From IMG/VR virus record IMGVR_UViG_2744054675_000002: 5,867 nt of DNA; one strand, 5' to 3'. Numbering within the stretch: the stretch's first letter is position 1; the number at the start of each line of letters is the position of its first letter. The stretch comes from a virus. Lineage: Duplodnaviria; Heunggongvirae; Uroviricota; Caudoviricetes. The notes below the pieces were generated by a model. It did not search any database. It was not told the DNA's origin and worked only from the letters and a program-made list of their open reading frames with translations. Below, in pieces: positions 540 to 5,008 of this stretch. A program made the translations under genes and the position numbers.

Positions 540-596
540 TTAATTTGCTCCAGATACAAGGAATCGCCGCAGCGTGGCCACGGTGAATTTTGGGCA

Positions 597-620
597 TAAA
601 AAAACCCAGCCGAAGCTGGG
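597..620 (-). terminator. Rho-independent terminator between ant and the tailspike gene
   Basis: On the minus strand: CCCAGC-UUCG-GCUGGG (plus coords 605..620) followed directly by a U7 tract (plus-strand A-run 598..604). This is a GC-rich 6-bp stem with a UUCG tetraloop. The position matches the known terminator after ant in P22, which late transcription reads through to express the tailspike. Confidence 0.8.
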
Positions 621-639
621 TCGTTGCGTTGGTTATCTG

Positions 640-1542
640 TCAGTAGTTATGTACTGAAGGAGGTAATTCTTTATTCTTAAGTCTCATCCATGCGGAAAGA
701 TTCGTTGGTCCGTCTGGCTCATTGATATCAACATCTCGTGTGTGATTGATTAAAACGTCTCTCGCCATTCCGATAACATACGAGAACTCATGACCATAGT
801 CGTAGCATCTGCCGGAATAGTTCGATTGAATTTGTTTCAGCGCCGGATACAGTTCGCGGAATAATGCCTGTGAGCGGTTGGCATAATCCCATAACCATAC
901 AAGGCTGTTTACTTCTTTTGCAGAAAGCTCGTTGGTTTTCTTCTCTTGTTTGCTAATGAACTCACCTTCAAGCACTACCCTGTGGATGTACTCTACTGCT
1001 TGCGGTATCTGAGATGCATCAAGCTCTTCAATACTTTCCACATTGAAACGCTGATGAATCATTGCATAAGCTTCTGGGTACATTAGATGCTTTTTGCTGA
1101 CCAGCATATTTACAGCATCACGAAGCGGAGTCCTGTCATCAACAGATGTTTTCTTACGTGCATTTTCTGCCTTTCCCTTTGTCCAGTAGTCATGCAGCAC
1201 GGTAAAGCATTCTTCCTGGTACTGAATCAGTTTATCGCGGATGTCAGCACGAACTTTCTCAGGGTTGATGCTGAACAGCCATCCATTTAACTTCTTCAAA
1301 GGAAGGCAGAGTAGCTTACGAAGTTTCCCATCAGCGGCAACCATATTCATATGAATACAGTTGAACTTATCTAGTTGTTTCATAAGTTTTTGTTGCTGAG
1401 TACCCCAGCTCATTCCGAGGTTTTCAACGATTGGCTTCATCGCAACATATGCAACTCCGGCAGCCATGGCGGTGATAATCTGCTGACCATTGAAAGGTAC
1501 GTAAGAGGTGTTCACTGCTTCTAAAATTGCTATACTATTCAT
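640..1542 (-). CDS. ant: Antirepressor Ant (P22 immI-type), 300 aa
   Basis: ORF 640..1608 on the minus strand, but the codon at 1608 is TTG. The first ATG is at 1542..1540 ([21 protein letters not shown]...), with GGAG about 10 nt upstream, giving 300 aa. Size, position directly downstream of an Arc-like gene, and orientation toward the tailspike all match P22 ant. Confidence 0.85.
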
Positions 1543-1614
1543 GTTGGTTTTTCTCCACGGATTTACCGACAACCGAAGCCCTGACTGTTCCAGCAGTTGG
1601 GGCTTCAACTTTTT
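1543..1614 (+). ncRNA. sar: Candidate sar-like small antisense RNA, complementary to the ant RBS/start and the arc-ant intercistronic region
   Basis: Plus strand: extended -10 motif TGcTATACT at 1528..1536, inside the ant 5' coding region, which predicts a start near 1543. A hairpin follows at 1575..1606 (GAAGCCC / GGGCTTC core, extendable with G-U pairs, 6-nt loop), then AACTTTTTG at 1607..1615. The predicted transcript of about 70 nt matches the size and position of the P22 sar RNA. Ends are approximate. Confidence 0.5.
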
Positions 1615-1778
1615 GCTATATTACCTTTAGAACTATCCCGCCTTAAACTATCCACTAACCGCATTACCATCTCGGTATTTATTGAGCGACCATTTTCTTT
1701 CGCTGACTTCTCGATTGCTAACTTAACCTCTAATGGGATGCGCAAAGGGTACTTTGGTGCGTCTGACTTGACTATCAT
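1605..1778 (-). CDS. arc: Arc-family ribbon-helix-helix repressor, 57 aa
   Basis: Minus-strand ORF. The ATG at 1778..1776 is preceded by GGAGGT (revcomp of 1782..1787). Protein [57 protein letters not shown] has the N-terminal beta-strand plus helix pattern of P22 Arc (compare PQFNLRWPREV...ENGRSVNSEIY). The track ORF 1605..1793 begins at a TTG and is taken as an over-extension. Confidence 0.85.
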
Positions 1779-1866
1779 ATTACCTCCAATCAATTTGGTA
1801 TAACCGTTATACCATTGTGATCGCAGTGATGCAATAGTAATATCACCAAAATGCTATGGAGGTGGT
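1779..1866. promoter_or_regulatory. Divergent immI control region (Pant leftward, Pmnt rightward) with operators
   Basis: An 88-bp gap between divergent arc and mnt start codons. Candidate Pmnt on plus: -35 TTGTGA 1815..1820, 17-bp spacer, -10 TAATAT 1838..1843. Candidate Pant on minus: -35 TTGCAT (revcomp of 1829..1834), 17-bp spacer, -10 TATAAC (revcomp of 1806..1811). Promoter hexamers were assigned by eye and are tentative. Confidence 0.6.
1796..1814. promoter_or_regulatory. Perfect 19-bp palindromic operator TGGTATAAC-C-GTTATACCA (putative Mnt-type operator overlapping the Pant -10 and start)
   Basis: Nine-bp perfect inverted repeats around a central C, read directly from the sequence. 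It sits about 18 bp upstream of the arc start codon, overlapping the proposed Pant -10, analogous to O-mnt in P22. Confidence 0.6.
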
Positions 1867-2103
1867 ATGTCACGCGAAGAGCCGCAAATAAATATCAGGA
1901 TTTCCAAAGAGTTAAAGGCAAAGGTTAAAGCCAGGGCGCAACATAACAAGCGTTCCATGAATGCTGAAATAATACAGATTATCGAAGATGCTGTTTGTGG
2001 TAGATCGCTTAATAGCAATGAATTTGCTCAGAAAGAGGCTGACAAATTCAGGGATGCGCTGATTGAAACACTGAAAACCATGTATGGTAAGGATGCAAAA
2101 TGA
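1867..2103 (+). CDS. mnt: Mnt-family ribbon-helix-helix repressor, 78 aa
   Basis: ATG at 1867 with GGAGG at 1858..1862. Protein MSREEPQINIRISKELKAKVKARAQHNKRSMNAEIIQIIEDAV... matches the P22 Mnt N-terminal pattern (compare ...FNFRMPMEVREKLKFRAEANGRSMNSELLQIVQDAL). It is divergent from arc-ant, as in P22 immI. Confidence 0.85.
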   Translation: MSREEPQINIRISKELKAKVKARAQHNKRSMNAEIIQIIEDAVCGRSLNSNEFAQKEADKFRDALIETLKTMYGKDAK

Positions 2104-2309
2104 ATAAAAAACAGTTTATTAAGTCAAAAACATCAAGCAAGGAAGAGCTAGAGAAAGAGCTAAACTCCCTGAAATATGCTCTGTGTCTGGTTTACTCAAG
2201 ACTGCCAATGGAAGATAAAAACGCTATTTACAATGAAATGATTAGCAGCCTTGATTTTAACGATAGAGACCTAGCATCCCACCTCAACAGCTTCCGCGTC
2301 CCTGAGTAA
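2100..2309 (+). CDS. Hypothetical small protein (69 aa), translationally coupled to mnt
   Basis: The ATG at 2100 overlaps the mnt stop in an ATGA arrangement, with AAGGA 6 nt upstream. The protein is hydrophilic and probably helical, with no family I recognise. The region looks AT-rich by eye. Confidence 0.5.
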   Translation: MNKKQFIKSKTSSKEELEKELNSLKYALCLVYSRLPMEDKNAIYNEMISSLDFNDRDLASHLNSFRVPE

Positions 2310-2469
2310 TTCTGTTGCGGATTTGCTTCTTGCGGTGGTTTAGGCTGGAGAGCTTGGCTTCTGCTTCCGATATTTGCGCATCCAGATCTTTAAGTTCAAG
2401 ATCTGAAAGTCGCTGGTCAAGCAGGGTTTGATTCAACTCGATGTTGTTCAGGCGTTCTTCTATGGTCAT
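2284..2469 (-). CDS. Hypothetical coiled-coil-like small protein (61 aa)
   Basis: ATG at 2469..2467 with AAGGTAA upstream (revcomp of about 2476..2482). Codon choice looks coding-like (CTG, CGC, AAC, ATC). The protein has heptad-like hydrophobic spacing and a basic C-terminus. It lies in late-operon orientation and overlaps the 3' end of the 69-aa ORF by 26 bp, so it is uncertain. Confidence 0.35.
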   Translation of the reverse strand: MTIEERLNNIELNQTLLDQRLSDLELKDLDAQISEAEAKLSSLNHRKKQIRNRITQGRGSC

Positions 2470-2494: not shown

Positions 2495-2794
2495 GTGAAG
2501 CGATGGGTTATAGGTGCATTCTGTTTTCTAATTAGTGGTCTTGCACAATCGCAAGATAAGGATCTGAAATTTGCTAACGACATGTTAGTTACAGCTAAAG
2601 TTGCTGGTATGTGTGGAACATTTAAACAAATGTTTGCTTTTCAAGAAGCAACACAGATGCCCGGCGGAGATGAATTTATTGAACGTTTTTTGAATACGGA
2701 AATTTCTCGCCTAGGAATGTCACTTCAAGAGTTCATGAAGTTGTGCACAGATTCTATAGAGTCATACAATAAATTAAAAAGGATGTCAGAATAG
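2495..2794 (+). CDS. Hypothetical secreted/periplasmic small protein (99 aa) with N-terminal signal peptide
   Basis: GTG start at 2495 with GGGAG at 2484..2488 (6-nt spacer). The N-terminus MKRWVIGAFCFLISGLAQSQ has a basic n-region, hydrophobic core and a likely signal peptidase I site after GLA. There is no lipobox. The mature part of about 79 aa has two Cys. The gene is AT-rich. Confidence 0.6.
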   Translation: MKRWVIGAFCFLISGLAQSQDKDLKFANDMLVTAKVAGMCGTFKQMFAFQEATQMPGGDEFIERFLNTEISRLGMSLQEFMKLCTDSIESYNKLKRMSE

Positions 2795-2889: not shown

Positions 2890-5008
2890 GAAAAGCGATA
2901 ATACCAACGCGGGCTAGATTTTTCTTCTCGTCCGCTGATAGCGTATTTACCCAATCCCTATATGGTTTCACTTTCTGCATTGAAGCATCCACCGATTTCC
3001 TAGATGCTGGGGTGCTGGCGTGACCTGCGGCAATCCTTTTTGAGAGATTTTTAAAAGCCGGAGATGCTATTAATTCATCAGCGGCAGCCATTCTTGAATT
3101 TTTACCAGAACGGAGGAGGCTAAAGAGTACCCCTGCCGTACCGGCTCCAGGCGCTCCGATGGCTGTGGTTAGCCCTTCTGCTTTAGCCACGTCTTTTCCT
3201 ATTCCATATATACGCCCAAGCATTCCCTTCTCTCCTGCGAACTGATTCATCATCCGGTCAATTTGAGAGGAGGAATACACCTTCTCGCTGCCCACCCTTT
3301 GCATGCCAGAAGCCACCTCATAGATGTTTCTCAACCTACGCGTAGCCTGATAGCCAATTGCCCGGCTCAATGCCTGCATATTTGATTTGTTTCTTGATAG
3401 CCCTCCATACCACTTAACAAATCCAGGAACACCAAGTGACTGCCCGGGAGATTTAGCGAACGTAGTGAAAGCCCTATTCATTGCGGTGGCAACAGCTGGT
3501 TGCACCATGTCATCAGGAAGATTTGAAACTAGGCGACGGAAATCACCGCCCTTTCCTTGAGACATATCGACGATAGCTTGCTGTAATTGCGGCACTATTC
3601 CTTTATCCAAGTCTCTGCCAAGATTTTGAACAGCGGCTGCCTGCACTGCGAATCTCTTTCTCCCGATCTCTCTAGCTAAATTCCATGTATCCTCTGCACC
3701 ATATTTGGCAGCAGCGGCTCCCTGATCTTTTATCAGTGCGCTTTCAATAATTCCAAGGTGCCGAGCGTCGATGCCGCTATATGGCCCTTTATCCATCTCT
3801 TTGCCAAGAGCCCTTCCAACCTGCCGTCGAACTGCATCAAGAAGACCATAAGTCGGGGCGGTGTTTGGGTCTATTTGTTCCAAGGTCTTTGACAGTTGAG
3901 GATATAGCGATTTTAGTTTTTCCAGCCCACCGACATCATCTGCAATATCCTCAATGGCGTTAGTGGTATGGGTGGTATCTACGGTAGCTCTTGTTGGAAT
4001 TTTTGCTCTAATTTGATTGTATAGAGTGTCTTCTTGGCGCTTCAGGTTTGATCTTAACTCCTCATAAGAGCTTTTGACCTTTTGATTGATAAAGTCCTTA
4101 TCAACGCTCCCACCAAAATCATTAATAAATTTATCTGCCTGCTCTCCAAGCCTACTAATGGCCTCTCGCTGTGCGTGGAACAGTTTATTCCCTGGGGTTG
4201 CAGCTAAAGCATTTTCAAACGCGCGGTAAGAAGGGTTGCTGGAGTACATGCCGGGAGTTAAGGCATCCTCCATCCCAAGATTGCGGGCGGCCTGTAGCAC
4301 AGAATCATCTGGTGAAACAGCTTCCGCGAGAGCATTTAAACCAGATCTGTTTCCTGTTATTGGATTCACATCTGTAGCTTTCGTTGCAACCCTCGCCATT
4401 CCACTAAGTTCAGATGCCTGAGACATTTCTGCCGATGGAGGCCTAAACCTCTTCGTAACCGCACTGGCTGCTTTGCTAATCACTGGAGATGCCAATTCAG
4501 CAATTGGACCAGCGGCAGCACCTATAGCCGCCCCTGTAGTTACATTGCCACCGGTTCCGTTAGCAACAACACCACCTTCAACCGCACCAAGCCCTGCGGC
4601 GGCAGCCAGCCTTGCCGCCCCTTTCGGAACCTGAGAAATAATCCCACCACCACTAACAAATGGCGCTGCTTGTCCAACAAACTCACCAACATCTTGTGCG
4701 GTTGATGGTTTTGCCGCTAACTTCTGCTGTAGAGACTGAATTGCGGCTTGCTCTTCTGGTGTCATATCCTGAAACAGGCCAACACCTTTACCAACATCCA
4801 TCAATCCACTGAGAACGCCATACATAAAACGGTCGAAACCGTTAGCATTATTAACAACATTTTCCTGTCTGGAATTTTCCTCTGGTGAAACCAAAGGAGA
4901 TTGCTGCTGTTCTGGTTGGGAATCAAGCACAAAGCCATCAGGAAGTTGTGAGTTATCAGGCTGTTCATCCAGAACAAACCCCTCTGGTAAACCTACATTG
5001 GTTGCCAT
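2840..5008 (-). CDS. Ejection (DNA-transfer/injection) protein, P22 gp16-like, 722 aa
   Basis: Long minus-strand ORF with ATG at 5008 and AGGA about 7 nt upstream. It is the last late-operon gene before the immI region, which is the position of gene 16 in P22-like genomes. It has a Gly/Ala-rich segment and a hydrophobic stretch near the N-terminus. The family assignment comes from synteny and composition, not from a verified alignment. Confidence 0.7.

Follow-up and report, generated by a model that had tools for sequence, protein, structure and literature searches.

A perfectly symmetric candidate operator for an Mnt-like repressor in a P22-type immI module of an Escherichia coli prophage

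In the immI (secondary immunity) region of phage P22, the Mnt repressor reportedly acts through an operator, O-mnt, at the divergent promoters Pant and Pmnt (work of Sauer et al. in 1983 and Vershon et al. in 1985 and 1987), and experiments by Knight and Sauer in 1989 are said to have traced Arc/Mnt specificity to a short N-terminal region. The stretch of DNA analyzed here (5,867 nt in full; the window) raises the question of what, if anything, reads a palindrome that lies between the start codon of an arc-like gene (A at 1778, minus strand) and that of an mnt-like gene (1867, plus strand). A sequence-only reading had proposed that this palindrome is a candidate operator of the immI switch. 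We consider it probable, at roughly 0.7, that the 78-aa Mnt-like repressor uses this site as its operator, as part of a P22-type immI module carried by a P22-like prophage of E. coli.

The window corresponds to the late-operon "ant moron" of a P22-like (Lederbergvirus) E. coli prophage, the nearest sequenced phage being Kapi1, and it contains the following elements.

640–1542, minus strand: ant, P22-type antirepressor, 300 aa (Pfam P22_AR_N 7.4e-45, P22_AR_C 6.1e-30)
1543–1610, plus strand: sar antisense RNA (Rfam RF00262, 91.8 bits against a gathering score of 43, E 2.8e-19, full length 1–68)
1605–1778, minus strand: arc-like gene, 57 aa (Pfam Arc 2e-12; 40% identity to P22 Arc)
1796–1814, strandless: candidate Mnt operator (O-mnt equivalent), the 19-bp perfect palindrome TGGTATAAC-C-GTTATACCA, proposed from sequence, conservation, position, and single copy
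1867–2103, plus strand: mnt-like gene, 78-aa ribbon-helix-helix repressor with a putative Mnt-type C-terminal helix (Pfam Arc PF03869, 5.7e-13)

Open reading frames and Pfam matches, together with the annotation of Kapi1 and P22, place mnt divergent from the arc-ant operon and between the DNA-injection and tailspike genes; the minus strand also carries the head-binding end of the tailspike, and the injection-protein genes lie farther right. This is the gene order of P22 immI, which runs mnt, divergent promoters, arc, sar, ant, and then tailspike. The sar RNA spans the ant ribosome-binding site and the arc-ant junction, with a terminator hairpin at 1575–1606. By homology, the locus is a complete P22-type immI module: its Mnt homologue is full length and is accompanied by a homologue of Arc, an Ant of P22 type, and a sar RNA.

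The earlier identification of the two flanking genes as Arc- and Mnt-like held up. The 78-aa protein, which carries an N-terminal ribbon-helix-helix domain of Arc/Mnt type (PF03869, 1MNT), has Mnt as its best PDB match (1MNT, E 8.4e-9; Arc only 0.013), whereas the 57-aa protein is closer to Arc (1ARQ, 1e-6) than to Mnt (1.7e-4). Against P22 Mnt, the 78-aa protein is 35% identical over residues 1–75 (E 3e-18), and its C-terminal TLK..Y.K aligns with that of P22 Mnt, T68, L69, Y73, and K75 being nearly invariant in the Mnt family. When the C-terminal 34 aa were compared with the PDB by themselves, no informative solved relative emerged by sequence. Judged from these alignments, the 78-aa protein is an Mnt orthologue and more than a generic ribbon-helix-helix protein.

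Several further features of the region were observed. The beta-ribbon of the Arc-like protein (residues 9–13) reads KYPLR, with proline at the position of the base-contacting Asn11 of Arc, and Arc-like relatives from Klebsiella, Cronobacter, and metagenomes have Asn there. A terminator-like hairpin read by eye (CCCAGC-ttcg-GCTGGG followed by T7) lies right after ant at ~598–630 on the minus strand, which is the place of the annotated ant terminator of P22. Downstream of mnt are a 69-aa open reading frame (2100–2309, plus strand), also present in Kapi1, whose start overlaps the mnt stop (ATGA), a 61-aa coiled-coil frame (2284–2469, minus strand) that is XhlA-like by annotation of its relatives, and a 99-aa frame (2495–2794, plus strand) with a signal-peptide-like N-terminus.

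The claimed symmetry of the palindrome is exact: positions 1796–1814 read TGGTATAACCGTTATACCA, with two 9-nt arms that are exact reverse complements flanking a central C. It is the longest perfect palindrome in the window (loop 0–1), the runner-up having 7-nt arms, and the half-site has no additional copies within the window. Under a first-order Markov model, 99 of 2000 simulated sequences of 5867 nt (~5%) contained a palindrome with arms of 9 nt or more and a loop no longer than 1 nt; among simulated 89-nt sequences matched in composition to the arc-mnt intergenic region, 230 of 100000 did (0.2%). The palindrome is thus mildly unusual for the whole window and clearly unusual given its location. 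Its sequence was not found in the literature searched.

To compare its placement with known loci, every locus was set in the mnt-sense orientation and distances were taken from the palindrome center, with BK000583, in which Pant, Pmnt, O-arc, and O-mnt are annotated from experiments, serving as the P22 reference. The promoters predicted in the window are as follows.

1806–1814, minus strand: predicted Pant extended -10, comprising TG (1814–1813), G, and TATAAC (1811–1806), inside the right half of the palindrome
1829–1834, minus strand: predicted Pant -35, TTGCAT, separated from the downstream -10 hexamer by 17 nt; all 13 variants have TTGCA(T/C)
1815–1820, plus strand: predicted Pmnt -35, TTGTGA, abutting the palindrome at the same offset as in P22 and ST160; TTGT is invariant
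1838–1843, plus strand: predicted Pmnt -10, TAATAT, at the same offset as in P22 and ST160; conserved, with TAGTAT in Cronobacter-type relatives

The corresponding offsets from the palindrome center are these.

P22: Pmnt -35 starts at +10 (TTGAGA), Pmnt -10 at +33 (TATCAT)
Window: Pmnt -35 starts at +10 (TTGTGA), Pmnt -10 at +33 (TAATAT)
ST160 and phage L: Pmnt -35 starts at +10 (TTGTGG), Pmnt -10 at +33 (TATGAT)
L153-type locus (an IMG/VR contig): Pmnt -35 starts at +10

The center-to-Pmnt offsets equal those of P22, and the palindrome therefore fills the O-mnt slot base for base. It is a perfectly symmetric site of odd length that lies between the arc start and Pmnt and directly precedes the Pmnt -35, and the distance from the arc start codon to its center is 27 nt in the window and 25 nt in P22. 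The predicted Pmnt has a 17-nt spacer between its -35 and -10 and would start at ~1850, while Pant is predicted from sequence to start at ~1799. The Pant hexamers are weak consensus matches (TTGCAT; TATAAC, without the final T), and both the hexamers and their spacing are kept in Klebsiella and Cronobacter relatives while the intervening spacer changes. A consensus promoter scan of the window did not report the predicted promoters; the Pant -10 was missed because its hexamer ends in C.

These predictions bear on the earlier claim that the palindrome overlaps the -10 and start of the ant promoter just as the Mnt operator does in P22. The overlap itself is borne out by the predicted Pant -10, which lies inside the palindrome, but the likeness to P22 is not: the annotated Mnt site of P22 (14822–14844) starts just past the Pant -10 (promoter 14793–14821) and covers the start (+1 to +17), so that only the window palindrome would cover a -10. 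The predicted Pant lies 14 bp nearer arc than in P22, and the candidate operator would therefore cover the extended -10. A P22-like placement of Pant, with the -10 at +15 and the -35 at +38, was considered and rejected, as the window has TGCGAT and TGGTGA at these positions and the -10 position is hypervariable.

An alignment of operators across P22-like relatives, which the sequence-only reading had suggested as a check, shows the palindrome to be conserved. The exact 19-mer was present in 19 IMG/VR contigs, 17 of which are immI loci encoding an Mnt-like protein beginning MSREEPQINIR and an Arc-like neighbor; in the remaining two (L014 and L015) it lies inside a 389-aa arginine-rich capsid-like open reading frame and looks like a chance occurrence. 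Relatives with imperfect palindromes were added by protein-based scans of IMG/VR and metagenomes, giving 13 distinct intergenic sequences from E. coli, Klebsiella, Cronobacter, and metagenomes. Across these sequences, in which Mnt identity falls to ~58–64%, 14 of the 19 palindrome positions are invariant, while the 9–10 nt adjoining the palindrome vary in nearly all columns. The palindrome is the most conserved non-coding block among the relatives, its core occurring once per locus at a constant distance from mnt. The substitutions observed are as follows.

Palindrome position 2: G>A in five of 13 sequences
Palindrome position 3: G>A in Cronobacter ES2
Palindrome position 6: T>C in L179
Palindrome center: C>G in L127
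Palindrome position 16: A>G in L112 and L118

The flip of the central C to G in L127 is as expected if the center is not read. The right half of the palindrome, which coincides with the predicted Pant -10, is better conserved than the left, and part of the conservation could therefore reflect promoter constraint. The left half has lost TG in five relatives, but 6–8 of its 9 positions are still symmetric to the right half, and it would look like a second half-site under weaker constraint. In L112 and L118, IMG/VR loci that share arc, mnt, and the operator with the window but have another antirepressor gene (start MKSIAKAQNDFTIFKF...), the position-16 change makes the predicted Pant -10 CATAAC.

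All palindrome-bearing loci encode an Mnt with one and the same N-terminus, MSREEPQINIR. In contrast, the beta-strand of the Arc-like protein varies while the palindrome is unchanged, reading KYPLR in the E. coli types and KYNLR or KYNMR elsewhere. An mnt-like gene, an arc-like gene, and the palindrome are found jointly in each intact locus recovered from IMG/VR with Arc-like and Mnt-like queries and from metagenomes with an Mnt query, and the loci that break this linkage, namely L133 (a recombinant) and Kapi1/L123 (a deletion), all lack the palindrome. In L133 (IMG/VR 2684622670_000013), a Cronobacter-type Mnt (MSREEPQINIRVS...) sits beside foreign upstream DNA, with the recombination junction at the Pmnt -10 and another Arc type 395 bp away; this locus is probably a remnant.

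Mosaic Mnt proteins extend the association between N-terminus and palindrome. The phiv205-1, PhiR12_5, and 611R6 types share the C-terminal ~30 residues of the Mnt-like protein of the window, but their N-termini differ, and their loci have other upstream repeats and lack the palindrome. This pattern fits the N-terminal residues setting specificity, as stated for Arc and Mnt in the passage of PMC3413123 that cites Knight and Sauer (1989). The shared C-terminal segment FAQKEADKFRDALIETLKTMYGKDAK (window 2010–2100, the C-terminal third of mnt) is nearly identical in these three types (L005, L006, and L011), whereas their N-terminal DNA-binding parts are quite different. A search of the Mnt family alignment against genomes of 185,579 species returned only distant relatives (at most 56% identity). 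In Xenorhabdus and Phlomobacter, proteins whose ribbon reads QINIR have different upstream sites, and no simple ribbon-to-operator code emerged from that comparison. Gene homologies, placement in the O-mnt slot, conservation, and co-occurrence with MSREEPQINIR together lend comparative support to the proposed role as operator of the immI switch.

Whether this site would be read with the specificity of P22 Mnt is a separate matter. The P22 O-mnt given in the sequence-only reading, AGGTCCACGGTGGACCT, agrees with BK000583, and the half-site does differ from it as claimed. The two operators share an odd-length perfect palindrome, a central C/G, and an AC-N-GT core, but O-mnt is 17 bp in length compared to 19 bp in the window, and with centers aligned (cAGGTCCAC-C-GTGGACCTa for P22) only ~8 of 19 positions match, mainly the AC-N-GT core and a few outer bases. 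The P22 O-mnt recognition sequence (AGGTCCAC-G-GTGGACCT) is absent from the window palindrome, and a distinct specificity class is therefore proposed. The Mnt N-termini differ as well (SREEPQINIRIS in the window, ARDDPHFNFRMP in P22), the beta-ribbon reading QINIR-IS in the window and HFNFR-MP in P22 (His6 to Gln, Phe to Ile, Pro to Ser). Since both the operator and the Mnt N-terminus differ from those of P22, the pair should form its own immI specificity class, and a binding specificity different from that of P22 is plausible. P22 Arc and phage L Mnt have the same Gln/Asn/Arg contact triad as the Mnt-like ribbon yet recognize other sequences, and the differing specificity is therefore not derivable from a simple residue-base code.

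Further natural variation occupies the same slot. In phages L, ST64T, ST160, and SE1, whose loci are Mnt-only remnants lacking arc and ant, the same Pmnt offset holds a palindrome of 19 bp that is likewise perfect (TAAGACCAC-G-GTGGTCTTA), and their Mnt ribbon has Gln at position 6, as in the window, but their half-site sequence differs. At least four operator types are found in this slot (those of P22, L/ST160, the L153-type locus, and the window), and that of the window is the most divergent of the four, with an AAC-C-GTT core compared to the CAC-N-GTG common to the other three.

The alternative that weighs most heavily is that the 57-aa Arc-like protein reads the palindrome as its operator, alone or along with the Mnt-like protein, with Arc lowering both divergent promoters from this one site. 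An Arc-like gene always accompanies the palindrome, and no natural recombinant parts the Mnt-like from the Arc-like gene, so co-occurrence alone cannot assign the binder. P22 Arc on O-arc (PDB 1PAR) likewise uses Gln/Asn/Arg ribbon-helix-helix recognition, with two dimers on a ~21-bp site with a central base pair, and the O-arc half-site TGATAGAAG resembles the half-site of the window at 6 of 9 positions; over the full palindrome, the window is nearer to O-arc (12/19, counted by hand) than to O-mnt (8/19). Moreover, unlike P22, the window has an Arc-like ribbon KYPLR and no evident O-arc-like 21-mer, and no separate, clearly symmetric Arc operator is seen at the place of P22 O-arc, where positions 1823–1843 are poorly symmetric and partly hypervariable, while in the L153-type locus the O-arc position is occupied by a similar element, CTATCAC-C-GTTATAG.

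However, the position of the palindrome is exactly that of O-mnt and not that of O-arc, which in P22 lies between the Pant -35 and -10 (center +28), is only partly symmetric, and is bound by a protein without the C-terminal tetramerization helix. The central contact of the Arc-like beta-strand changes (Pro versus Asn) with the palindrome identical, and the Mnt N-terminus is invariant. The arc-less phages also retain a palindrome in this position: phages L and ST160, without arc and ant, keep mnt together with a palindrome in the slot, and at the family level the slot is therefore tied to Mnt and not to Arc. Given this evidence, we consider an Arc operator, or one used by both proteins, unlikely. 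Candidates for a separate Arc operator were sought and rejected: the near-symmetries GTGAT-N11-ATCAC and GTAATATCAC are weak and shift between relatives, and the Pant spacer is hypervariable. The near-palindrome of L153 (IMG/VR 2848889956_000009), which lies ~+21 to +35 from the palindrome at the Mnt position, has the 9-mer ACCGTTATA in common with the window palindrome; this could be a coincidence or a hint of related ribbon specificity.

A related, quite doubtful possibility is a switch built on one operator, in which the half-site is the -10 itself (TGgTATAAC), the Mnt homologue, with its Arc-like Gln/Asn/Arg ribbon, would compete directly with sigma-70, and the palindrome would serve both the Mnt-like and the Arc-like repressor. 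With no separate Arc operator in view, such double use of one site is conceivable.

It is very improbable, by our estimate, that the symmetry arises only because two extended -10 boxes of divergent promoters stand back to back (TGGTATAAC on each strand), with no repressor involved. Each half does read TGnTATAAC on its own strand, and the right half is both the best candidate for the Pant -10 and the better conserved one. The left half, however, has no usable -35 (CATATT), and where its TG is lost (5/13 relatives, TAG...) or its hexamer altered (TACAAC in one), the halves stay symmetric at 6–8 of 9 positions. A better-placed, conserved Pmnt with P22 geometry is available at 1815–1843, and in P22, where the operator is experimentally defined, a palindrome occupies the same spot yet is not a -10.

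We give almost no credence to an RNA hairpin in read-through (late operon) transcripts or to a functionless chance palindrome: minus-strand RNA from 1824–1786 does fold at -12.6 kcal/mol (z = -3.8), with three of the four natural kinds of substitution G-U tolerated on it as read from the alignment, and for chance the ~5% whole-window rate is not negligible and the same 19-mer occurs within the capsid-like frame of two unrelated contigs, but Pant transcripts are predicted to start inside the palindrome, so the hairpin cannot form in them, no U-run follows the palindrome, compensatory double changes are not seen in relatives, and chance, at 0.2% within the intergenic region, leaves the cross-genus conservation and exact P22 geometry unexplained. 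An imperfect extension of the palindrome is present, with 21-nt arms (1784–1826, 76% complementary) and outer ATCA/TGAT; as an extended element or RNA hairpin it was rejected, there being no consistent covariation among relatives.

Returning to the palindrome as the operator of the Mnt-like repressor, we infer from these comparisons binding by the Mnt-like protein, its tetramer geometry, the promoter positions, and heteroimmunity. By analogy with P22 Mnt, the protein would be a tetramer of two ribbon-helix-helix dimers joined via their C-terminal helices, with the N-terminal beta-ribbon (PQINIR) of each dimer reaching into the major groove at its own half-site (TGGTATAAC). A tetramer on 1796–1814 would cover the predicted Pant extended -10 (TGgTATAAC, 1814–1806) as well as the predicted start (~1799), and would thereby block RNA polymerase at Pant in the lysogen and keep arc and ant silent. 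With arc and ant shut off, the lysogen is proposed to make no antirepressor. The rightward Pmnt, directly beside the site, would stay free and may gain as the competing, overlapping Pant is lost; in P22, Pmnt is active or relieved of competition when the divergent Pant is repressed (PMC11016777). The sar RNA and the Arc-like protein would supply further layers of control, as they do in P22. Repression by this Mnt would not reach a superinfecting phage that carries a different Mnt/operator pair, and this is the sense in which the pair may define a distinct immI type.

A natural deletion in the closest relative bears on this region. Escherichia phage vB_EcoP_Kapi1 (MT813197; L001) is 98.7% identical to the window over the region at the nucleotide level and 97.4% identical in Mnt, and arc, ant, and the flanking genes are shared. 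In both Kapi1 and E. coli MP1, its host, however, a 65-bp deletion corresponds to window 1768–1832 (near position 3196 of the L001 locus), and the lost sequence held the arc start and ribosome-binding site, the whole palindrome, the predicted Pant, and the Pmnt -35. The 261-bp control region was found in 44 of 5426 complete E. coli genomes and is intact in 43 of these 44, MP1 alone being deleted; the intact form seen in the window is ancestral. The authors of the Kapi1 study described its mnt-arc-ant locus as "similar but not identical" to that of P22, and reported with surprise that mnt was not expressed in the transcriptome of Kapi1 lysogens (PMC12922286). The deletion together with the unexpressed mnt fits the deleted region being the control region. 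The 65-bp deletion is a candidate explanation that may account for the silent mnt in Kapi1 lysogens, and it would also account for ant needing no repression in Kapi1. Kapi1 also has an HNH endonuclease gene between ant and tailspike (L001 1482–1982) that is absent from the window (541–639).

Recognition of DNA by ribbon-helix-helix proteins has its classic models in Mnt, Arc, and their operators, but to our knowledge the P22 pair is the only Mnt/Arc-operator pair that has been studied. The known logic of the immI switch is unchanged by these findings. The palindrome and its Mnt-like protein most likely represent a new specificity class within this well-known system, and a natural Mnt with a clearly different, perfectly symmetric candidate operator would provide a second data point beyond P22. 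The Mnt of the window retains the Gln/Asn/Arg-type ribbon that other family members use for other sequences, and comparison among them could show how ribbon-helix-helix specificity is set. Were the one-operator switch true, it would represent a natural re-targeting of a ribbon-helix-helix protein with the three canonical contact residues unchanged. The intact control region offers an explanation for the published puzzle of mnt in Kapi1, and the locus could reveal how P22-like prophages of E. coli, Klebsiella, and Cronobacter come to differ in their secondary-immunity class.
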